Part shown: one piece after another, positions 6,171 through 37,851 of the stretch
Position numbering within the stretch: the first letter of the stretch is position 1
How the letters are laid out: each line of letters opens with the position of its first letter
DNA from: Lophium mytilinum
Taxonomy: Eukaryota
Length of the DNA stretch: 37,851 nt
Direction: 5' to 3'
Assembly: GCA_010093605.1 (NCBI GenBank)
Contig: MU004184.1
Coordinates: 2,366,801-2,404,651, forward strand
Program-made: the position numbers and the translations under genes
The notes under the pieces: model-generated
Seen by the model: only the letters and a program-made list of their open reading frames with translations
Told to the model about the DNA's origin: nothing
Database searches by the model: none

Positions 6171-6257
6171 CACCACTGCAAGGGGTGGCCCGGGAGCACT
6201 TATGCAGCTATCCAAAAGGTAGCCTAACATCTACAGTGTCGACCTTTGTGATGTGTC
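6171..6257 (-). repeat. Inverted partial copy of the 162-bp repeat unit
   Basis: The reverse complement reads ..AAAGGTCGACACTGTAGATGTTAGGCTACCTTTTGGATAGCTGCATAAGTGCTCCCGGGCCACCCCTTGCAGTGGTG. This is colinear with array segments at about 3466-3542 and 3950-4026. Confidence 0.85.
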
Positions 6258-6396: not shown

Positions 6397-6604
6397 TACA
6401 GCTTAAGGTAGGGCTATACGTACGGCCTCACGTAGAGTCTCTCCTATGCGGCCTTTCTTATACGGCCTTGAGGCCCCGCCAGCTCAGAATGCAGCTCGCG
6501 AGGCAGCGCGCAAGGCCACTGATACGGCAATACGTACGGCCTCGCATATGGCATCACGTACAGCTATATATAGCAACATGTAAAGCGTTACCTACGGCCA
6601 TCAA
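6397..6604. repeat. Degenerate 12-bp minisatellite (consensus about TACGGCNNYACG)
   Basis: Units include TACAGCTTAAGG, TAGGGCTATACG and TACGGCCTCACG (6397-6432), then TACGGCAATACG, TACGGCCTCGCA, TATGGCATCACG and TACAGCTATATA (6523-6570), and TACGGCCATCAA (6593). Confidence 0.65.
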
Positions 6605-7290
6605 GAACAGAAAGGATAGACGCTCGGATAGATGTGGAGGTGAATCTTTGGAGGAAAATTCTAACTCCTTCGAGCTAATTGGAAGGGGTCGTGTACGTGG
6701 GCTAAAACGGGGTGCATGGCAAGTGTTCCCCATTCTCAAAGTCAATAATAAAGCTAATGCTTAGACTGACGAAGCTTCATTCCTAGTCGGAAAACTCGCC
6801 GGGGAACCTAGGACCATGCGTTCCACTGAATGAGTCTCGTTACGCTGTACGAATATCGTGTAAGTTGAGACTCTTTTGGTGTTTCGGGAAAGACACGAAA
6901 GGCTACGGAGCCATGTTCGAGTAAAGACTTCTTAGCCACACGGCGTAGTTTGCCCAATACCGGCACTACTACCTGCTGTCCCTTCGCCATGAAAGATGTG
7001 GCTATAGGTGGTGGATCAGCCTATAGTGAAGTGTGTTTTGGCGTAATGATGGCTTTTTAGTTTCCTACATATAGATAGAGGCCGTAAGCTGAAAAGCTAT
7101 CGAAGCAATGTACCCGGGCTGACTAAAGTCGCGGGCAGTAAACGAGCAAGGAGGAGATAGTGGGATTAATCCTTGGAATGTGGACTAAGAATCGTAGTTT
7201 TGTAGACACTTGGCGGAGAAGACAAGGGAACAAAGACCTGGAAATAGAAGGCCATAAGGTGTGTAGGTAGTGAAACGGGGGTTCCAAGGG

Positions 7291-7297
7291 TATAAAA
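7291..7297 (+). promoter_or_regulatory. TATA-like element upstream of the candidate structured RNA
   Basis: TATAAAA lies about 50 nt before the base of the 7348-7468 hairpin, and no coding gene starts nearby. Confidence 0.3.
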
Positions 7298-7319
7298 TAG
7301 TTATATTGCTTGGCGACTT

Positions 7320-7499
7320 CAAAATCTTCGGGCTCTGGTACAACGTTCAGTTGATCTTTAAGCCTACCCCAGTGGTCGAGTTAGCGCTGTTAAAGCTCCT
7401 TCGGGGGTGAGGTTTCAACGTCAAACATTGACTCTTCTGTACCACTGGGTGGGTTGACGGATCAGTTGTCCTTACTATCAGTCTTCGAATACCTTTTTT
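7320..7499 (+). ncRNA. Candidate structured non-coding RNA (long imperfect hairpin, possibly Pol III transcribed or pri-milRNA-like); family unknown and 5' end approximate
   Basis: Nested helices are 7348-7356/7460-7468, 7361-7376/7441-7455 (one C bulge), 7378-7384/7428-7434 and 7389-7394/7414-7419, with an apical GCUCC-UUCG-GGGGU (7395-7408). About 8 G-U pairs form on the + strand, and T6 follows at 7494-7499. Confidence 0.55.
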
Positions 7500-7521
7500 G
7501 CTTTTGCTTTCTTATTTTTTT
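7494..7521 (+). terminator. Possible Pol III oligo-T terminator
   Basis: TTTTTT at 7494-7499 and further T runs to about 7521 follow the hairpin directly. Confidence 0.3.
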
Positions 7522-7918
7522 GGGCATGCCCACATGACCATCACTTGACCTTGTGTATGTATCTCGATAAATATTGTAACCCAGCACCTATGCCGTCTTT
7601 CAGGGCTCTTTAATCCTCGATAATTCTACTCCTGACAATCACTCAAAGAAGTACCGTACCACCGTGCAATCTTGATCAATCAGTTGACAATGCTAGCATC
7701 ATCGAGAATTGTGAAATAATGTGCTCAAATCTCGCCAGACTAAATACATACCTATCTTTGTCCATCTCAGACAGCGACAAATCCTTCCTTCTACGGGCGT
7801 TCTCGAAACAGTCCAGAATAAGAAGAAACTACGTCACCATCCATGCGGTATATGAATTAAACCTCTCAATCTGTTCTCAGTGGGGCGGCGAGATAATGGA
7901 CCGCGTCCCCACCCAAAC

Positions 7919-7945
7919 TATATATATATATATATGAGTCACGTG
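7919..7945 (+). promoter_or_regulatory. (TA)8 microsatellite abutting overlapping TGAGTCA (Gcn4/CPC-1/AP-1 type) and CACGTG (E-box) motifs
   Basis: The sequence TATATATATATATATA-TGAGTCACGTG lies about 370 bp upstream of ATG 8312. A further TATAAAA is present near 8038. Confidence 0.35.
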
Positions 7946-8311
7946 GACCCGCAACCACGGAACCGTGATGATCCACCCACGTTTGGGAAAGAGGAGACTT
8001 CAGGAACCATGATTCGAGTTAGAGCGGACCATGAGTGTATAAAATCTCGACAGGCCTTACGTTTCTTCCCGCACATCTTTCAGAACTATTTCTTCTGCTT
8101 AGACCACGCTTTTACTCTTGCGTTTTACAACCGCCCCAAAAGCATTCGCCTTCTTAAAGGCCCCGTCTGTCGCTTTACTTATCGCTTTACTTGATACAGA
8201 ATCGGCTCCTGGTGCTTTCTGCTTCTTTTCCCACTCAAGTAGTTACGCTCGCTACACCCTGCCTCGCGTCGTCTTGAATATCTTTCAAAAAAGTGCAAGT
8301 CCATCGTCCCG

Positions 8312-11300
8312 ATGGATCACCAGTCATCAACACCCGAGCATGCACCCCAAGAGGCACGACTTGTGGAAAATGCATCCCAAGCACCCCAGTTGGCTTCAGC
8401 AGTCGCCTCGCTCGACGTGCCAACAGTCACGAACCCATACATCGGACCACCACCCACGAACCCATACATCGGACCACCAGCCACGAACCCAGCCATCGCA
8501 GCACCAGACGCAAACTCATCGAATTCCAACCCAAACCCCGAACCTATAGCGCTTGTTGAACCAGTCCAATATATTAAAGGAGCCGAAGCCCCGATGACTC
8601 GGGGCGAAGAAAAGAATGGAGATACGCGCATTGAGAAGGAAAAGGAAAAGGCCGCGACGTACGAACTAGCGCACGTACGCAAAGATGAAGAAGCCGCCCA
8701 GAGCGTTGCCGAACCCAAGCAGCAGATTCCAAAGATGGACGATGGATACTACGGAGTGAACCAGTTCTATAATGAGGCTAGGTGGTCAGAGGCGGAACTG
8801 GGGCCTCAGCCATGGAACAAAACGGCAGAATTTCCCAGTCGTGCCCTTTCACTTCGTGATGCGATGCCCGACCACACTCGTCTAGAGGAAGAGACCATGG
8901 AAGCGCGGCGCGAGAGCGACGTCGCCTTATCGCCCCCGATCGCTCGCACGCCAGAGGTCCCGCCGCCGATTGCTCGCACGCCAGAAGTATCGTTGCCGAT
9001 TGCTCGCACACCAGAGGTACCGCCGCCGACTGAGAATGCCGCAGCAAACATGGACTTTGAACCTACGAGTAGTGAAGATCCCCCTCCTAACACTTCAACG
9101 ACAACTCCGGAGACTCTCGACTCCGAGGACCCTGTCGACCCCGAGATTCTCCGCAAACGTTCGTTGCTCGTCCCGTACCCTGGCGAGCCCACTCCTCTCG
9201 TGACACCGATATACATCCAGGGCCTAACTTCCATAGCCAGGAAGGAGAAGGACACGTTGGAGAAAATGGTAGCGGCTGAATGGGAAGCGCTGCAACGGAG
9301 CACGAAAGGTTCGGATGGGGAAGCTAAAGCCGTGAAGCAGCTTGCGACATGGTCGCGGACCTTGACTCTTAACGAGGAACGAGAGAACCGTTCTCCGGCG
9401 AAGACGGCGGCAAAGACGCCCAAGGAGGACGATGCGAAAGGGGAGGCGGCCAAAAAAGAGGAAAAGGCGCATCGTTTTTCAGCCGGTCTCGCTTATGCGG
9501 AGATGCCCCATATGCCCCAGGAGCTCCAAGGACTGATCAAACCCATGGATATCATGAAAATTGCCAGTCTTGCGGAAGACAAGAAGGAGGGACACAAAAA
9601 GGTTGTCGCTGAGCAGTGGTATTGCCTCGCAGCCTACCCAAAAGACTCCCCGGAATACATCTTAGCTCACGAAACGCTCACCAAATGTACAAAAGTCTTT
9701 GCACAATTGTACCAAGAGGGGATGCAGCAGAACACTATCCAGGAAGCATCGAAGGCTCCACAGGAATTGACCTTGATTCCAACTGGTCAGTCTAGCACAG
9801 ATGCGAACAGTGCAACAGACCTCAGCATCTACGGCGTCATCCGACCCGAAGAAATCCTTAACCTCCCACTTTCCGATGCAACAAAGGGCCACTACCATGC
9901 CAAGGCTTCCACTCTCTGGAACACGCTCCAGACTGCTCAGAAAGACACGCGGACGTTTGAGCTGGCCTACAAGAATTATGCCCAACTGTCGTGGAAAGTT
10001 AGGCAAATCGCGCGCGAGCGTCAAGTCCAGCCGCCGGCACCGCAGCCTATTCAAGACGAGCAGGAAACACAGGGAGCAGCCGGGTTTCCGGCATTCCAAG
10101 GGGCTTATAGAGCATATCCATCAGTGGAACCTTGGAATAATAATTATTTGCCTGTTCCGTCAGCAATGTCGTCGCTTCAGCCTTTCCAGACAGGCACCTG
10201 GACTGGGTTCAACAAGAAGACTCAGAATCTGAATCAGGCTACCGCGATGGACTATTTCGGCGCATCGTATCCAGCATACAATCAGGCCAGTTCTTACCCG
10301 GCCGCTACGGCCAGCTCTTACCAACCCGGCGGCCTTGTGGCGTGTTCGTGCCCGCAGTGCACTGCACAGCAACTGCCGACGTATCAGAACACTCTTACCG
10401 CATCCACGACATTCCCAGTTGCTATCGGGATGCCGGCTATCGCGCAGAATGGGATTCCGCAGCAGGTGCAGGCGATGAGCGCGTCCCAGCCTGTTGCAGC
10501 GCCTGCACCCGCAGCAGAACCTAAGCAGGAGATGAGCCCTGGCCAGGAGTTGATGGTGGGGGCGGAGCAAACCACTACCCGGGAGTCCGAAACGGATGAG
10601 AAGTCGACCACCACCCAGGACACCGAGGCGAAATTTGCCAAAGACGTCGCCACCATCCTCAGCCGCTACCCGGAACCCAAAGACCTAGCGGAGCTTCTCG
10701 TCAGGTCAGAGAATGACTTTCACTCTTTCAAGAAAGATAGCGTGAAAGCCTGCACTACCCTCACTGGGCTCTTGCAGGCGAAGGACAAAGTAATCGAGGC
10801 ACTCAAAGCCCAAGAGACTGATTCGGTATCGGCCGATTACCTGGAAACCGAGCGCGAGCTTGCTAACGCTAGGAAGAATATGCAAGAATTGCAGGCTGAT
10901 GTTCATCGCGTGCGTGAGGCTAAAGAAATCTTCCGGACTCGGTTCAAGGAGTGGCAAACGAAGCTAGAGAGCGCCGAACCCGCGGATAACGAGCCGGACC
11001 CCAAAGATGCCGGAGAAGAAGAACGCATGGACGACCAAGAGCGTGCGCAAGATCCACAAGACTTCCCCTTCCTATTGAAGACGGAGAACGAGAGCCAATG
11101 TGAGGAGATCGCCGACCTGCGTTCTGCAAACGAAGCGCTTGAAGCCGCGGCACGGAAAGTTTCCTCGGGATGCGAGAACTGCGTAAGATCCGCCGCCGAG
11201 CGTGAAACCGACCGCGAAAAGCTGAAGACCATGGGAGTTAAGAGCGCGGCATTGGAGAAGGAGATGGAGGTCGCATCCGAGAAATACAAGTTGTATAAAC

Positions 11301-13192
11301 ATCACTATGTCTCGCTCAGGCTCCGCTGTATCGCAGCCGCCAAGGACACCAAGGCTAGTAAGATATTGGCGGGCGAGAACGAGCAGCTCAAGAAAGCTCT
11401 CAAAGAAGGGGGCATAGCATACGATAGCCTTTCCGAACAGTTGGCCGAATTGAAGACTGTCCAGACCGACTTGGAGGAGTTGAGAAAATCCTACGACAAG
11501 ACGTTTGTCGAGTTGAAGACCACCCAAACGGCTTTAGACGAGCTAAAGAAAGCGTCCGCCCAAGCGACGATCGATTTGGATTCCGCCCGTAGGGAAGCCG
11601 GAAGACTTCAGGTTGCTCATGAAGAGGGTCAAGCTAAGCTGGCGTTCTTAGAGACTGAGGGTGAACGTACTCGGGAGAAGTTGCGCCAAGAACAAAGCAG
11701 GTTGGCCGCGATTGAGACAGAGAGACGCAAGCTTGTGGATGAGCTCAAAGAACTAAGCGACGATTCCGACAATCTCACAGCCGACCTGGACCTGGCCAAC
11801 GAGCGATTTTTGCAGCAAGGGAGCAATCTCAACGCCGTTGTCTATCACAACGCTAGACTGGCCGACGCGAAGAATGAGCTGGAGACACGTTTCAACAAGG
11901 TCAAGATGGAGCTGGAATCAGCATATTCGCAGCTTGCCCAGCAAAAAGACTGTCTGGACTTGACCGAGAAGGAGAAGCAGGATCTTGCGGCCGAGAATGA
12001 GCAACTGACAGCCAATACCATCAACCTAGAGAAACAGCTTCACGAACAAGGAGCCAAGATATCTTCCATCCTGAGTAGAAATGATGTCTTGAGCGCCGAG
12101 AAATCACAGCTCAGCAACGATCTCATGGTCATGAGTGCCAAGTACAAGGAAGTCGGTGAGAAGGTTTGCTACCACCAAGACAAACTCACCTTATCGGAGC
12201 AGAAGAACGCCGAGAACGATCAGCTTATCAAGCACCTCGCCATGGAACGCGAGCATAGCGCGAGGGAGGTCGACAACTTGAGCATGCATGTTGGAGTGGC
12301 CGAGAAAGCGATTGGCCGGCTTGAGACCGAGAATGAGCAACTTCGAGACGACCATGAACTCCTCCAGGTCGAGTACAAGAGACAGAGCGAAACCATGCAA
12401 AATCAAGCCAACTGTATAACCCAACAGGCGGGTGTTATTCAAAAGCAAAAGGAATTTCGGCAGCAGAGCGAAGACCAACTCGAGAGCTTCCAGCGTATGA
12501 GCGATCAGGTTTCCAAGCTCGACAAGACGATCCTGGACCTGGTGGCCGAGAATAAGAATTTAAACGACAAATACAAGGACGCGTGCGAACGCTTCACTGC
12601 GAATTGCCAAGAGAAAGCGAATCAGATAGCCGAAGTCGCGAGATACAGAGATCTTTTGGCGGTTGAACTTGAAGAACTTGAAGCTAAATTGGCAGATGAG
12701 ATCTCTTCGAGACACTTGGCGGAATCCGAGTTCACGAGGGTGCTTGGCGCTTTAGACGATGAGCACCAGAAAAACCACGCGCTGGAGGTTCTGATCGAAT
12801 CTCTCCAAACTTCGCTAGATGGCTCGGCGGAGAACAGTCAAAAGGCTGAATCTTGCGATGAGGCTGCTGAGATTGACGACGAGGCTGCTGAAATAGAGGC
12901 CGAGGCCGCCGAGGTCGAGGATGAGGTCTCCGAGGTCGAGGTCTCCGAGGTCGAGGATGAGGCCGCCGAGGAAGAGGATGAGGCCGCCGAGGAAGAGGAT
13001 GAGGCCGCCGAGGAAGAGGATGAGGCCGCCGAGGAAGAGGATGAGGCCGCCGAGGAAGAGGATGAGGTTTCCGAGGTCGAGGATGAGGTCTCCGAGGTCG
13101 AGGATGAGGTCTCCGAGGTCGAGGATGAAGATTGGGTGCAGCTCTCAGCGGAAGATCAGCAGCATCCGGTGTACACTGACTGGCGTCCCTAG
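8312..13192 (+). CDS. 1626-aa single-exon protein: Pro-rich N-terminus, three ~56-aa TAF12-N-terminus-like helical repeats, Q/A-rich segment, ~700-aa coiled coil and acidic repeat tail
   Basis: An uninterrupted 4.9-kb ORF. Repeats lie at 9197-9364, 9533-9700 and 9836-10000, and a heptad-like E/K/L/Q-rich region spans about 10700-12820. No catalytic motif was recognised. Confidence 0.9.
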   Translation: MDHQSSTPEHAPQEARLVENASQAPQLASAVASLDVPTVTNPYIGPPPTNPYIGPPATNPAIAAPDANSSNSNPNPEPIALVEPVQYIKGAEAPMTRGEEKNGDTRIEKEKEKAATYELAHVRKDEEAAQSVAEPKQQIPKMDDGYYGVNQFYNEARWSEAELGPQPWNKTAEFPSRALSLRDAMPDHTRLEEETMEARRESDVALSPPIARTPEVPPPIARTPEVSLPIARTPEVPPPTENAAANMDFEPTSSEDPPPNTSTTTPETLDSEDPVDPEILRKRSLLVPYPGEPTPLVTPIYIQGLTSIARKEKDTLEKMVAAEWEALQRSTKGSDGEAKAVKQLATWSRTLTLNEERENRSPAKTAAKTPKEDDAKGEAAKKEEKAHRFSAGLAYAEMPHMPQELQGLIKPMDIMKIASLAEDKKEGHKKVVAEQWYCLAAYPKDSPEYILAHETLTKCTKVFAQLYQEGMQQNTIQEASKAPQELTLIPTGQSSTDANSATDLSIYGVIRPEEILNLPLSDATKGHYHAKASTLWNTLQTAQKDTRTFELAYKNYAQLSWKVRQIARERQVQPPAPQPIQDEQETQGAAGFPAFQGAYRAYPSVEPWNNNYLPVPSAMSSLQPFQTGTWTGFNKKTQNLNQATAMDYFGASYPAYNQASSYPAATASSYQPGGLVACSCPQCTAQQLPTYQNTLTASTTFPVAIGMPAIAQNGIPQQVQAMSASQPVAAPAPAAEPKQEMSPGQELMVGAEQTTTRESETDEKSTTTQDTEAKFAKDVATILSRYPEPKDLAELLVRSENDFHSFKKDSVKACTTLTGLLQAKDKVIEALKAQETDSVSADYLETERELANARKNMQELQADVHRVREAKEIFRTRFKEWQTKLESAEPADNEPDPKDAGEEERMDDQERAQDPQDFPFLLKTENESQCEEIADLRSANEALEAAARKVSSGCENCVRSAAERETDREKLKTMGVKSAALEKEMEVASEKYKLYKHHYVSLRLRCIAAAKDTKASKILAGENEQLKKALKEGGIAYDSLSEQLAELKTVQTDLEELRKSYDKTFVELKTTQTALDELKKASAQATIDLDSARREAGRLQVAHEEGQAKLAFLETEGERTREKLRQEQSRLAAIETERRKLVDELKELSDDSDNLTADLDLANERFLQQGSNLNAVVYHNARLADAKNELETRFNKVKMELESAYSQLAQQKDCLDLTEKEKQDLAAENEQLTANTINLEKQLHEQGAKISSILSRNDVLSAEKSQLSNDLMVMSAKYKEVGEKVCYHQDKLTLSEQKNAENDQLIKHLAMEREHSAREVDNLSMHVGVAEKAIGRLETENEQLRDDHELLQVEYKRQSETMQNQANCITQQAGVIQKQKEFRQQSEDQLESFQRMSDQVSKLDKTILDLVAENKNLNDKYKDACERFTANCQEKANQIAEVARYRDLLAVELEELEAKLADEISSRHLAESEFTRVLGALDDEHQKNHALEVLIESLQTSLDGSAENSQKAESCDEAAEIDDEAAEIEAEAAEVEDEVSEVEVSEVEDEAAEEEDEAAEEEDEAAEEEDEAAEEEDEAAEEEDEVSEVEDEVSEVEDEVSEVEDEDWVQLSAEDQQHPVYTDWRP
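8429..9030 (+). repeat. Two coding minisatellites: 27-bp (TNPYIGPPx) x~3 and 30-bp (xPIARTPEVx) x3
   Basis: ACGAACCCATACATCGGACCACC repeats over about 8430-8500, and CCGAT(C/T)GCTCGCAC(G/A)CCAGA repeats over about 8935-9025. Confidence 0.85.
12857..13132 (+). repeat. 21-bp coding tandem repeat encoding acidic heptapeptides (EDEAAEE / EDEVSEV)
   Basis: GAGGATGAGGCCGCCGAGGAA occurs in five near-perfect copies, flanked by GAGGATGAGGTCTCCGAGGTC copies. Confidence 0.95.
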
Positions 13193-22237: not shown

Positions 22238-25200
22238 GTGGGTATGTATATTGTGTAAAGAAGGCTGTGTATGGAATTGGAGTCATGGCGCGAGGCTAAA
22301 GATCTATCGAGATAGCGGAATGAATTGCTTGTCTTTTTGGAAATCATATCTGCATGGATTGATGATCGCCGCTAAGCATCCAATCAATGCAGCTAGATCT
22401 CTATCCTTTCTCATCACTATCCTTTTCACGCCCTGTAGACCAGAGAACTTTCCGTTCAATACAATGGCGGTAACTAGACTCATTGACAAGGGAAAATATG
22501 AGTGCTCCACGAGCCTCGGCTTTACTTGGCGAGCTAGCGCCAACCACCAACATTAGTCTGTGTATGGGGATGAAGATGGTGGCCAGTAAGGAAGTTTGAG
22601 AAGTTACGACGTGTTAGTGGCACATCGCCTTCGGCCAAAATGTCATCGAAGATAGATCTTTTGGTCGCTCCCTTGGTAGGGACGCTCTGTATTTCCGACC
22701 TTCATAACACTATGAAGAGGCTCACCATTAAAATAGCAGTTTCTAGCTAATTACTAATGCGGGAACATTCGAGTATTTGCGAAGTGGGGTTGCGATTTCT
22801 GTAAAATTGCGACTTCTATGGATTTCTTGGTGGAGAGGCTGGGAAATTGTGCACCAACAGTCTCGGCAATCAACGCATGCAACCATCGGAGCGGACTATG
22901 GGAGTGAAGAATAGCCCTCATCAATGCGGTTTAGGTTACGCCTCAGGTTGGCTACAAGAAGTAGCTTTCTAATTACCGGATGCTTTTGGGTGGAGGTCTT
23001 TCCCATTTCGAATTCGACATTTCCTTTGACGTCTCGTTCATGCAGGTGGCTCGGAGGACCGCCTTCAAGTATATCTCTCACCGTGGCAGATGCTGCTGGA
23101 TTGCTGGTTGGGAGCTTGCCGACAACACTGGAAACAAAGGTTCATGCGGATGTGCCTATGCGTTGGTGACCTCGACCAGGGTGGCTACAGCGCGGGTCTT
23201 TGGGTTGTACATCTAATGTGAGGCTAAGGGGCCCGGTCCAATATCTCCGTCGGGGTGATACTATAGAAACCCAGAAAATGATATGCAAATACTGCATGAA
23301 GAGGGAAATCAACCGAGGCATATGGTCATCGATGAGACGAGTTCTTTCTGCTCTGGAACGCAATCAAATACTACCACATGACTCGGATGATATCAATGCT
23401 GAGAAAATCGGGCGTGCTGAGCTCTGCGCATAAAGCAGCGCCGAGGAACGGTTGACGAGTCGGGATCGATAGATCTATCGGAGCCTTCACATAGAGACCG
23501 CCGAAAGCCGCTCACACTGGCGCCTTCAGTACATGAAAGTATCATTCTAGCTAAAAGTGTCCCCTTCGGTGGTCGAGATTGCGTCGTCTAAAGTTCTTTT
23601 CATCTGGTGGGAAAGAAGGCTATGACACTCTTTTATCCATGGGTCGCAACGAATTAGAACCTGTCTCTACACCTTCTGAACTACCGACGACGCCTCACTT
23701 GCACTCTCAAAGCACTGTAGAAAAGCTATTCATAGTGCTATCGAGACGGCGCCTCTATCTGGCCATGGGATGCTCTGAGACCTTGTCCTGCTGATAGCTT
23801 ACGGACTGAAAAGGGCGCTTTGCGGGTTCGAATGAGGAGGCCTTGTTCCGGCAGTTTCGATAGCATGGATGAGAGAGGATGTCATAGTCTCGGGTCTAAT
23901 CTGTTTGCGCTATCTGTGATGAAGGTCTTAAGAATCCCATGGGAAAGAGCAATCTCGAGCTATGAAACAGTCCAATTTCTGCTTCATAAGGATAGCGGGT
24001 CCCTTCAAACGACTCATGATCTCGTTCGACATCGACCGTATTATCATTGCATGAGAATCCTCGAAATCTAGTATGAAAAAAATGTATAGAGTAGCAAGAC
24101 TTGCAAACCCTGTGCAATAAGAGGCCTCCCTCGCGCTTGAAAGATACATCACCGAGAGTGGCTATGATCTTGACTGAGACCGTTCTCTCGCCTCCAAGTG
24201 AGATTCGTAAGAGCCTCCCGGTAAAGCAATGTATGAAGCGATAATAATCTTAGAGAGCCTTACGGAAGAGATCCTCTTCCTTGCGCTTTCAAACCGCTCG
24301 TGGCAGGCTGATATGATCTCCTCCAATGTCGCGACATGAACGAGCGAATGGGAAGTTCGGAAAGGCTCCCGGCAAAGAGCCTGAAGAGCTGCAAAATGCA
24401 GTTGCGACCCTGATTATGGGTTGCGCTTTCGAACCATAAAGGTCCGAGAATCGCATGATTCTGTCTAATTGCGAGAATTGATGGGCGTACGGAGATTGCG
24501 AACCATTTTCGTCTAACAATCGTGGGTAGTTGTAAGATCGGACTACCCATACTCTCATGAAAGCGTGGGTTTCAGATTTCGTTGCATGAGGGGGGCAGTC
24601 CAACACCCTGTGAGGCGGCCCAGGGAGCTATTGGGCTTGCTAAGGCTGGCCTCCTACGAATTTAGATGATCTACAGGGGGACCTCGGGTGATGCTAACCA
24701 AGGGTACAGAGACACAGTGCGGATGTACGTTTCGAGGATAGGAGAGTTCATATGAAGAAAACGGACTCCTGAACTACTACATCTTATTCAAAGGGCGCCT
24801 GATCGGGATTCGAATTCGGTTTTCGAATCGAGTATCGACATCGTCCATATTTTGGGCCGTGCCTTAGGTTTCCATCCAAGCCGATCTGAATAAGACGTGC
24901 GAAGGGTTCCGTCGATGAGTTTGGAGTTTCCTCGAAGGTCGTAGTCTGCCATGTCCGAAATGAAAATCTGCGGAGTAGAGATGCATACGGCATGGACTGG
25001 GAATTCAGAGTTGCAAAGGGAATGCAATTTGGGCGAAGGGGGTACTCCTTAGGACGCGCACCATGTTTCGAAAGCGGAGAGGCGGATTGGTGGATGAGAT
25101 GTCGAGGGGTAGTGGCGTGGTAAGAAGTCCGAGGAGAAATCCGGAAGGGATCTGTGACGGAGAATTTTATTTGTGCTTGGATCCGAATTTTATATAGACA

Positions 25201-33388: not shown

Positions 33389-33521
33389 GAGGCGATGTCG
33401 AGACTGGCCGTTTGGCCCGGATCTAGGATCAATGTAGCTGTTACGCGGACGCTTGCGTTTATGTGGAATTCTTAATATACGGTTGATATTTAGATATTGT
33501 ACACGTAATATATAGATCTAC

Positions 33522-36500
33522 TGTAGGAACGCTTTTCTATATAGATCTAGTATAATTAAGGCCTATACAGGCCTCTCTAATATATATATAGCCTAGCTAG
33601 ATTTCTATATAGAATTAATATCTATTATCCTCTAAATTCTTATATTATATAATTAGAAATATTATATCTAGTAGCTTAGTTATAGTTCTAGCTACCTCTA
33701 AAGCCTTCTTAGAGGGCTATTAAGTTCTTAAACTTAATAGTATAGAGCTAGCTAAGGCTATATTCTTATAATTAACCCTTAGTAATAATAAAAGATATTA
33801 GCTTCTATAATTAGTAGAATTTTTAGATTATTATAATAATACTAAGCTGTATTAATAGTTTCTAAAAATTAACCTAATTAGTAATTAATAACAACTATTA
33901 ATAATAGCCTCTAATTAGTATTAGGCTAGTATTATAGTATAACTACCTATTATAAATATTCTTATAAAAATTAAATAGTATAGGTTTAAAGAGCTCTTAG
34001 CTAGAATATTACTATAGAATTTTTCTATTCCTTTTAATACTTCTATATAACTAACTACGCATTCTATTAGCTACTAAAGTAAGATTAATAGTAGAATAGT
34101 AAGAAGAATAATATTATAGCTTAATAGAGCCTAATAATTATATAGTAATTAGAAATCCTTATAAGTTAATTATAAGAAGAAGGCGGAGAAGTTCTTTTAA
34201 GAATCCTCCCTCTCTAATAGAATATTAAAAAGTATTTAAGTAAGAAACTTAATATTACTATCTTAGCACCTTTTTTTTACTCTTTACTTTAATTATATTA
34301 TAGTTATTAACTCTTTTCTACTCTTTCTTATTCTTAGATATTTTATAACCCTTAGCTTTCTTTTATATTTAGTAATAGATATTATTATTTTAATAGATTA
34401 CCTTCTAACCTTTAAGAACTCTTCTAAAGGCTCTTTTAGTTTAGTACTATATTTTATAATCTATTTAATCTAATATTAGCCTTATAGACTAAGTAGGCCG
34501 CTACTCTAGAATTTATTAAGCTACTAGTTTAAGATTCTCTAATTATTTATAGTAGTACTCTAGCCTATAATCTAGGGCTTACCTATTAAGGGCTATTATT
34601 TACACCTTCTTTAAATAGCTATTAATACTTCTAAGCCCCTATAATAGAGTATATAATAAATTACTAGAAACTAGAACTCTTTAGTTTTATATTAGCTTCT
34701 TTTATATAATAGTAGTAGGCTACTATACTAGAATAGCTATAAGCTATAGTCTCTAAGTACTATACCCGCGTTAAGAATGTATTAGATAACTTCTAGCAGT
34801 AGCCTACTTCTTAGAGTACTACTAACTTCTAGAGTCTACTATCTAATACTTTTTTAGATTATCTAATACTAGACTATAATAAGCCTTTATTAGAATAAAC
34901 TATATAAGAGCTTTAATAAGCCTTTAAAAGAATATTAGCTATAAGAGAACCTTATTTAATAGTGCTATTTAAAGTTTTTATAAGAACTCCCGCTATATAG
35001 TTAGGTAAAGTTAATAATAATATATACTCTATCTAGATAATTTAAATATATAACTTTATTACTATATAAGCGGACGCCTATTAATAGGTTTACTAGTAGA
35101 TACTAGAAACTTAAAAAATTTAGCTAGCCGGTAGCTATATAGCTAGAACTGTAGCTATTTAATAGAACTAAGATATTTAATAGTACTACTAAGATAATAC
35201 TAAGTTTACTATATTAGATTAGTTTTTTACTACCTTTAGCCGCTACTATAAGAGTATAGATACACTAAAGTAATACTAACACCGCTTTAATAAAATAGTA
35301 TAGATAACTAGTACTTAATAGTTCTTTAATAAGCTTATTAAAGCTACTTATATATGCCCTCTTAATATAGCTCTATCTAATTTTAAGGTATATTAACGTG
35401 CCTGCGCAGGTTTAAAACCTAGCCTTAAGTTTTATATTAATACCTAAGCGTAGGCCCCTTCTAATTTTAATAAATAGATAGTGTAGGTTACTACTACTAA
35501 TAAGTATTAGATCTTCTAGTATAAGAGAATAAGAGACTATTAGGGCCGCCTTAATACTATCTCTAGGGCTAATAAAGAATTAGATAATAATTACTTCTAA
35601 GAAACTAATATTAATCCTAATAAATATAAATATCTAAATACTAAAGATAACGCTAAACTTAATGCCTTTAAAGGTAGAAATACTACTAGATCTTAAAAAC
35701 GCGGTTAAGGCTATAGCGGATATAGTAAAGGTACTACTTAATAGAATACTAATATGCGTAAGTACTATAATTATAGTAAGAAGGGCTATATTAAACGCAA
35801 CTATATTTAGCTAGCTAAGAAGCTATTAAAAAACTAGAAGGGTTAGTAGCCTTAAAGTAACTAACTAATCTAAAAGATAAGACTTCTACTTTTTATAAAC
35901 TTATAATAGAAAAGAATTAGCTGCCCTTTAATAATTCTTCTAACTAAATTATTATTAAATTAATAGAAGAAAGAATCTACTACCTTAACTTTCTAGGTAA
36001 ACGTCTTTTAGAATATAAGAGAACTTTAGAACTATCTAACTATTAGAAAAAAACTACCTTCTTAATTAATTATAGCGCTAATTCTATCTATATATTATTA
36101 AAGTATACTTAATATTAGCTAAGAAATATTAAAATAATAGCCCCTAAGGTAGTTAAACTTCTCTTAGGTATAACTATAATTAGTATAAAAGCCTTAGAGA
36201 TTCTATTTAAAATCTATATACTATTAGATACTCTAACTATGCATATTCTAGACCTTAAAGGGTATTAATGCATTCTTAGTATAACCTAGCTATAGTAATA
36301 CTAAGCTATTATTAACTTCTTTACTAATTCTATTACCTTATAAACGCAGGTTAGCCGCAACCTAAAGATTAAACTAGTAGCTTATTAGCTTAATATATTA
36401 AGCCCTATTATAGACCTTAGTCTCTCTAAACTAGAATACTAGGGTTTTATTAATATAATATCCTATTAGAAGTATAAGAGGCTCTTAGTAGATAAGCTTA

Positions 36501-37851
36501 ATTCTGCTTACCTTTATATTATAAAAGCTTCTAATAAACTAACGCCGGATTAGGTACTATAATCTAGTACTAATCCGCTATTAGAAGATAAGAATTTATT
36601 ACCCCTAATTAATTATATTACTACTTCTATATAAGAGAAGTTCTAAAAGCTTCTTAAAGAGTATAGACCTTATTTCTATAATATTCTTTCTAATATTTTA
36701 CCGCCTAAGTATAGATATAACTATCTAATTAATACTAGAGATATAAAGCTAGTAAATAATACTATATACCGCCTCTTATATTATTAAATAGAGAAATAGA
36801 CCTAATAAATCTATAAGCTACTAAAATAGGGCCTTATCTAAGAGTCTATTAGTGCCTAGAAATCTTTAGTTCTTTTTATTCTAAAGCTAAATAGTAAGTA
36901 GTAAATATATATTAACTATAGAGCACTTAATCTAGTAACCTAAAAGAATATCTACTCTCTACTATATATTAATAACTACCTATAGTTATTTAGAAAGGCT
37001 AGATTCTTTACTAAGATTAATTTAACCTCTAGATATTACTAGCTGCATATTTATTAATTAGACGTCTATAAGACTACTTTTAATATAATTAAAGAGAAAT
37101 TTAAATTTCTAGTTATACCTTTTAGCCTTTATAATGCTCCTGCTACCTTTTAAGCTATTATAAATAACACCTTATAACTATATCTATATTAATTTATACT
37201 TATCTATATAGATAATATTATAGTATTTTTAGAAATATTAGAAAAGTATCTTAACTACCTCTAATTATTATTTAAAGCTCTTAGAAAGAAATAACTATTT
37301 ACTAAAACTAATAAGTACTTAATTACTTAAGAAACTATTAAGTTCTATAGCTATATAGTTTCTTATAGAACTGTAAAACTAATAACTAATAAACTAGACG
37401 CTATTTAGTATTAGCCTATTTCTACTAATATCTATAAAGTCTAATAGTTTATTAGACTAGCAATATACTATTAAAAGTTTATTAAGAACTTTACCTATAT
37501 ATTAGTACCTCTCTATAAGCTTCTAAAGAAAAGCAACACTATAATATAAAAGAAAAAGTACTAAGCTATTATATAGAATGTTAGCTATTAAATTACTTTT
37601 AACTCCCTTAAGCAAAAGCTTATTAAATACCCTATGCTCGCCCTTATTAACTAGTTAAAGTCCTTTTAGATTAAAATAGACACTTCTAATTTTACTATTA
37701 AAATAGTCCTTCTCTAATAAGGAGAAGATAGTAAGTAGCACCCTATTATATTTAATAGTTAGAAGCTTAATAAAGCTAAATTAAACTATCTAGTTTATAA
37801 AAAAGAACTTCTAGTAATTAAAGAAGCGCTTAGAATTTAGTAATACTATAT
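33522..37851 (+). mobile_element. Heavily RIP-mutated Ty3/Gypsy LTR retrotransposon (protease-RT-RNase H), truncated by the window end; left boundary approximate
   Basis: There is an abrupt switch to AT-rich, TpA-saturated DNA with almost no CpA or TpG. Relic motifs: protease LINYSAN (LIDCGAN, 36062-36082), RT INYRALN (36911-36931), PFSLYNAPATF, YIDNI (YxDD, 37205-37216), RNase H IDTSNF (about 37676) and NYLVYKKELLVI. A candidate LTR start TGTAGG lies at 33522. Confidence 0.93.

Follow-up and report, generated by a model that had tools for sequence, protein, structure and literature searches.

A TATA-box and oligo-T framed hairpin locus in a Lophium mytilinum spacer: a candidate RNA gene built like Neurospora milR-1

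Fungal U6 genes with a promoter of the SNR6 type have a TATA box at -30, an internal A block and a T-run. Pol III-transcribed microRNA-like genes have, to our knowledge, been worked out experimentally only in Neurospora. The milR-1 locus of N. crassa is intergenic and yields a pri-milRNA of ~170 nt, and a T stretch directly downstream is common to milR-1, milR-2, -3 and -4 (Yang et al. 2013, PMC3547838). In the consulted sections of this paper milR-1 is described as having no A and B boxes, while the recruitment of Pol III needs TATA-like elements. A sequence-only reading of the locus presented here had referred to several Neurospora milRNA precursors as Pol III-transcribed hairpins ending in oligo-T; by the same sections (PMC3547838) this is accurate for milR-1. 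The annotation of fungal milRNAs is notoriously unreliable. Basic standards are met by less than half of the mi/milRNA loci published for fungi, and the well-supported ones (tiers 1-2) present two of three attributes: an intergenic position, conservation and sRNA-seq support (Johnson et al. 2022, PMC9757828, consulted in part).

The candidate lies in the window, i.e. the whole stretch of 37,851 nt of Lophium mytilinum DNA that was analysed. This DNA is filamentous-fungal in look, and the RNA contigs mapped to it contain short GT..AG introns of 54-169 nt. According to the ORF and Pfam annotation of the window, the hairpin has an intergenic position in a spacer between two protein genes (Table 1). 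Reading frames across the hairpin did not exceed 85 codons and none of them had a start codon. The downstream 1626-aa ORF is transcribed: an RNA contig of run X1 covered 8061-12938 with a depth of 22.6. Its protein is coiled-coil-like by eye and carries an acidic C-terminal tail of tandem EDEAAEEE / EDEVSEV repeats. Short repeats with a period of 12 nt (TACGGCCTCACGTA-like) were present at 6397-6560 in five copies and two groups, within an open frame of 170 codons that is not protein-like in appearance. A second hairpin on the + strand (7047-7102) comprised ~20 paired positions with a 13-bp stem, GAUGGCUUUUUAG / CUGAAAAGCUAUC; a C-box-like AUGAUGG at 7046 and a CUGA at 7120 are located near it. 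The z score of this second hairpin was only -1.68, and its Rfam matches, MIR6438 and GlsR6, were far sub-threshold. An AT-rich, RIP-like block with a GC content of ~0.25 closes the window (33400-37851). In the paper collection searched, no paper paired Lophium mytilinum with small RNA.

Table 1 Features of the hairpin locus and its surroundings; positions are those of the window
Feature	Position	Strand	Remarks
Spacer holding the hairpin			2.3 kb; flanked by two + strand genes
Upstream gene	end 5978	+	396-aa ORF; without Pfam domains
Downstream gene	8312-13192	+	1626-aa ORF; without Pfam domains
TATAAAA	7291-7297	+	from sequence; as -30 element predicts a start near A7321
T-runs	T6 7494-7499, T4 7502-7505, T7 7515-7521	+	from sequence
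A-box-like TACCCCAGTGG	7365-7375	+	10/11 to the consensus TRGCNNAGTGG
TTCGAAT	7484-7490	+	resembles the B-box core only; pairs with 7327-7332 as outermost helix
Full imperfect rod	7327-7489	+	58 bp, 12 G-U; predicted MFE -57.5 kcal/mol for 7322-7499
Core hairpin	7348-7468	+	three outer helices of 10, 9 and 6 bp robust, mean pair probability 0.81-0.99
Outer extension helices	7327-7332/7484-7489 and 7335-7340/7476-7481	+	6 bp each
Helix	7348-7357/7459-7468	+	10 bp
Helix	7361-7369/7447-7455	+	9 bp
Helix	7371-7376/7441-7446	+	6 bp
Helix	7378-7384/7428-7434	+	7 bp
C(UUCG)G mini-hairpin	7395-7399/7404-7408	+	5 bp, mean pair probability 0.69
Intron-like segment	7364-7475	-	GTAAGG 7475->7470, GCTAAC 7385->7380, TAG ending at 7364

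The framing of the fold by a TATA box and a T-run, rather than the fold itself, sets the locus apart in the window. The signals named by the sequence-only reading were all located: TATAAAA upstream of the hairpin, T6 behind it, and the repeats of CTTCG at 7326-7330 and 7483-7487 besides the one at 7399-7403. The start predicted from the TATA box coincides with a pyrimidine-purine step (C7320/A7321). Within the first 33 kb, the + strand has two TATAAAA, at 7291 and at 8038, the latter 23 nt upstream of the start of the RNA contig of the downstream gene (8061). Two of the five runs of at least six T on this strand, again in the first 33 kb, belong to the hairpin locus; both strands combined contained 14 TATAAA and 8 such T-runs. 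In the 37.9-kb window, both strands taken together, a TATAAA with at least six T following at 100-260 nt was observed a single time, at the hairpin locus, whereas ~0.07-0.2 of these units per window are expected by chance, calculated from the observed densities. The rod begins 6 nt past the predicted start (~+7) and ends 5 nt short of the T-run, and reading of the sequence revealed no run of four or more T between the predicted start and the T6 terminator. The array of T6, T4 and T7 could represent a Pol III terminator plus back-ups or a pyrimidine-rich promoter tract.

Internal promoter elements were less convincing. The sequence TGGTCGAGTTAG, which had been proposed as A-box-like, is present at 7373-7384, but is a poor match to an A box. 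The element TACCCCAGTGG may be taken as weak evidence for an A box, because the first 33 kb yielded 11 A-box-like matches with at most one mismatch on their + strand; at ~+45 from the predicted start it would also lie deeper than the A box in tRNA or U6 genes. The full B-box consensus had no match with up to two mismatches in 7200-7600.

The nested helices described earlier for 7348-7468 are predicted on the + strand, though the extent given for them was too short, as the rod of 58 bp spans 7327-7489. For 7340-7480 (+) the minimum free energy was -46.7 kcal/mol, with 47 bp including minor pairs, among them 9 G-U. The five outer helices had pair probabilities of 0.81-0.99, the inner third of the rod reached only 0.26-0.69. 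The C(UUCG)G hairpin is present with its loop at 7399-7404; it does not form the tip of a clean rod, as had been assumed, but sits in an apical region predicted to be asymmetric or branched. CTTCGG is a common hexamer: the first 33 kb contain it 19 times on the + strand. The statement that nearly all non-Watson-Crick positions are G-U was overstated. Aligning the arms as a DNA palindrome, with every transition scored equally, gave 47 Watson-Crick positions, 13 G.T/T.G (one of them within the UUCG loop), 4 A.C/C.A, 7 mismatches of the transversion type and 19 gap columns. The comparison of 12 G.U versus 4 A.C corresponds to a calculated two-sided binomial p of ~0.08; the G.U excess is marginal and has to be seen as suggestive.

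The fold was modestly better than chance and strand-asymmetric. On the + strand, z scores of -2.55 for 7340-7480 (1 of 200 dinucleotide shuffles as good) and of -2.79 for 7322-7499 (2 of 200) were obtained. The same segments reached -1.13 (27 of 200) and -1.73 (7 of 200) on the - strand, and folding 7322-7499 (+) as DNA yielded -1.23, with 22 of 200 shuffles as good. The sequence-only reading had regarded the pairing as a product of selection on RNA structure; the + strand indeed beats its shuffles and the - strand does so less, the effect being modest only. For calibration, a grid of 944 stretches covering both strands in steps of 80 was folded, each stretch being 160 nt long and compared with 40 shuffles. 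It was run in DNA letters, thus tetraloop bonuses were absent, and it was unregistered on hairpins, while the candidate was taken at its best register. In this grid 41 stretches had z <= -2, 18 z <= -2.5, 13 z <= -2.8 and 9 z <= -3, with a minimum of -3.77. The two grid stretches overlapping the candidate showed z scores of only -0.68 and -1.24; with the grid script at the best register (7328-7487) we obtained -2.42 on the + strand (4 of 200 shuffles as good) and -1.84 on the - strand. Among 7,542 stretches of 141 nt, the candidate lay ~1.6 sd under the mean in GC-corrected energy. The hairpin fold alone is ordinary for 38 kb on two strands, since 18 of the 944 unregistered stretches reached z <= -2.5. 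The best folder of the window, 24321-24470 on the + strand, had a z score of -3.77 on the grid and, when 200 shuffles were used, of -3.06; this multi-hairpin structure occupies a gene-poor interval and is without signals like the TATA box and T-run.

Fold and framing were also considered jointly. Since the signals, not the fold, set the limits of the segment, its z score is comparable with the grid and corresponds to ~1 in 70. A loose unit rule (TATAWA, spacing of 60-260 nt, T5 or more) retrieved 36 units in the window, 32 of them inside the AT-rich block and 4 outside; 7321-7499 had the best z score of all 36 (-3.34, 100 shuffles), followed by a runner-up with -2.12. The joint chance of framing and fold was calculated as ~0.001-0.003 per window, a value to be read with all framing signals chosen post hoc. 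Per fungal genome this amounts to about one to a few chance units, a number similar in order to that of the true genes of this kind that might be expected.

Known RNA families did not account for the hairpin, in agreement with the earlier reading by motif. None of 4227 Rfam families reached its gathering score in the whole window, and at E <= 10 nothing was found on the hairpin within 7000-7800, where two sub-threshold matches were located at 7045-7101. ARAGORN detected no tRNA in the window, and none in 7000-7800 with introns permitted and a lowered threshold. Hallmarks of known small RNAs (C/D or H/ACA box arrangement, Sm site, cloverleaf) were absent from the hairpin by eye. When 7291-7521 was compared with the rest of the window by BLAST, the matches were all of 11-14 nt with E values of at least 1, hence neither a second copy nor a complementary target inside the window; among the other indexed DNA stretches there was no look-alike by sequence or place. 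A screen of public sequencing runs listed no RNA run that contains 7200-7600. Short non-polyadenylated RNA is not expected in data such as the contigs of run X1, a run that carries the same species label. Among the spliced RNA contigs listed for this run, which show presence and not absence, no piece was on the hairpin; the depth in the bins 6671-8004 was ~1, and next to none of 35 sampled words of 7200-7600 occurred. A metagenome scan with an exact 21-mer from the hairpin gave 0 loci, and for the upstream 396-aa protein none of 118 pattern hits was confirmed. The blanks in the RNA contigs and the metagenomes are uninformative in either direction.

In filamentous fungi, TATA boxes and T/C-rich tracts are also usual components of Pol II promoters, and the hairpin may be an imperfect inverted repeat without dedicated function that arose by chance or is slowly decaying, the TATA box and T-tract being unrelated to it, either cryptic or part of a Pol II promoter. 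We take this as a real possibility, well short of an even chance. The stability of the hairpin falls within the background, as z <= -2.5 was reached by 18 of 944 stretches and the energy residual is only ~1.6 sd, and the spacer is rich in hairpins, with other low-z stretches on the + strand at 6241 (-3.15), 6721 (-2.50) and 7041 (-2.28). Only 47 of ~75 arm positions are Watson-Crick pairs, with 19 gap columns in the alignment, and the interior of the rod is ill-defined. A hairpin by itself is also weak evidence, because, of the mi/milRNA loci published for fungi, less than half pass basic standards according to Johnson et al. (PMC9757828). Against a chance repeat stands the framing of the fold within a few bases by the single TATAAA...T6 unit of the window; furthermore, no Pol II gene is placed to use the TATA box at 7291, the downstream gene having its own TATAAAA at 8038, and both the z scores and the G.U pairs are biased towards the + strand. 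In another reading, the locus would be what remains of a foldback or MITE-type transposon after its arms deteriorated through transitions. The entire element is a single inverted repeat of ~160 nt, transitions make up 17 of 24 mismatches, and the AT-rich RIP-like block at the window end suggests that repeat-directed mutation may operate in this genome. RIP as described in Neurospora needs longer repeats than these hairpin arms, however, and further copies were missing, both in the window, where the best other match was 12-14 nt with E >= 1, and as look-alikes in other indexed DNA stretches. By reading the sequence, target-site duplications were absent at 7327/7489 and at 7348/7468. A transposon relic is regarded as very improbable.

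Pol II transcription could also include the hairpin itself, either in a minus-strand intron of ~112 nt (7364-7475) or in the leader of a + strand transcript; we judge this unlikely. In the contigs of run X1, 7997 is joined directly to 8061. The ends of the skipped segment are CT..AC, which on the minus strand makes a canonical intron of 63 nt (7998-8060) with GTAAGG as donor, CTAAC as branch and AG as acceptor; no ORF of more than 60 codons runs across the junction. From this joint it follows that a minus-strand spliced transcript heads towards the hairpin; it is probably non-coding. Antisense to or upstream of the 1626-aa gene, the minus-strand transcript would overlap the TATAAAA promoter of that gene at 8038. 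The RNA-supported intron is located ~500-520 nt from the intron-like segment, upstream on the minus strand, and shares with it the donor hexamer GTAAGG and 11 of 12 positions of the branch context. In yeast introns, pairing between donor and branch region is known to bring donor and branch point together. The minus-strand hairpin, flanked by GTAAGG and CTAAC...TAG, resembles such structured introns, but differs from them by its weak minus-strand fold with z scores of -1.1 to -1.7 (-1.13 and -1.73 for the two segments), where many shuffles were as good. A 7364/7475 joint was absent among the listed contigs of run X1, which show presence and not absence, and the run was nearly without the 35 sampled words of 7200-7600. 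The splice motifs are degenerate: an equally loose set is found on the + strand with GTGAGG at 7406, TTGAC at 7454 and CAG at 7465. In addition, an intron would leave the TATA box and T6 unexplained.

Our tentative reading, to which we give somewhat less than an even chance, is that of a stand-alone, TATA-dependent hairpin RNA gene of the Pol III type and the milR-1 kind. The case for an RNA gene is carried by the framing with TATA box and T-run alone, because the stability of the hairpin is within the chance range of the window. The TATA box would direct Pol III initiation near A7321, and the transcript of ~175 nt would terminate in T6, with T4 and T7 as back-ups. Such a transcript is predicted to fold nearly end to end into one imperfect rod. 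By analogy to milR-1, the rod may be cut by Dicer with subsequent trimming on an Argonaute, releasing a small RNA from the well-paired middle (7361-7384 / 7428-7455); alternatively, the rod could act as an intact structured RNA. What was observed are the signals in the sequence, how rarely they occur in the window, the precision with which they frame the fold, and a modest bias of the fold towards the + strand; the polymerase, both ends of the RNA, any processing and any function are inferred. On the other side of the balance, the B box is unconvincing, the A-box-like site appears too far in, and pairing is predicted with little certainty in the inner third of the rod.

If real, the locus would be a further gene of the already known milR-1 kind. 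A TATA-driven Pol III rod of ~175 nt in a Dothideomycete might then be the first gene of the milR-1 type described beyond Neurospora and its relatives, or the first of a new class of intact rods; either of these we consider rather doubtful. The combination of TATA box, transcript-filling rod and oligo-T would, if true, provide a testable rule, based on DNA only, for fungi without small-RNA data. If the locus is untranscribed, it serves to size the background: 38 kb contain many hairpins with z scores of ~-2.5, and the framing alone is distinctive.

In its architecture the candidate resembles fungal U6 genes by a TATA box ~30 nt before a purine start, an internal A-block-like motif and an oligo-T terminator with extra T-runs. 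It differs by the lack of Rfam U6 similarity, by a putative A-like block at ~+45 and not at ~+20, and by an unconvincing B block. Of the attributes of well-supported fungal mi/milRNAs named in the consulted part of Johnson et al. 2022 (PMC9757828), the candidate presents the intergenic position only. The comparison with milR-1, as far as that gene is portrayed in the sections of PMC3547838 consulted, is closer: both loci are intergenic, the candidate between two protein genes, and the hairpin-forming primary RNA predicted for the candidate would match that of milR-1 in length (~170-180 nt). In both, a T-run lies just downstream (T6 in the candidate) and a TATA element, here TATAAAA, upstream, the TATA element replacing the classical A and B boxes. 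For milR-1 the small RNA, the binding of Pol III and the dependence on Dicer and QDE-2 are documented, whereas the candidate is known from DNA alone. It would also belong to another fungal class if the host is a Dothideomycete, and the likeness described here is one of layout. With respect to this layout, "built like milR-1" appears to be a fair description of the candidate architecture.
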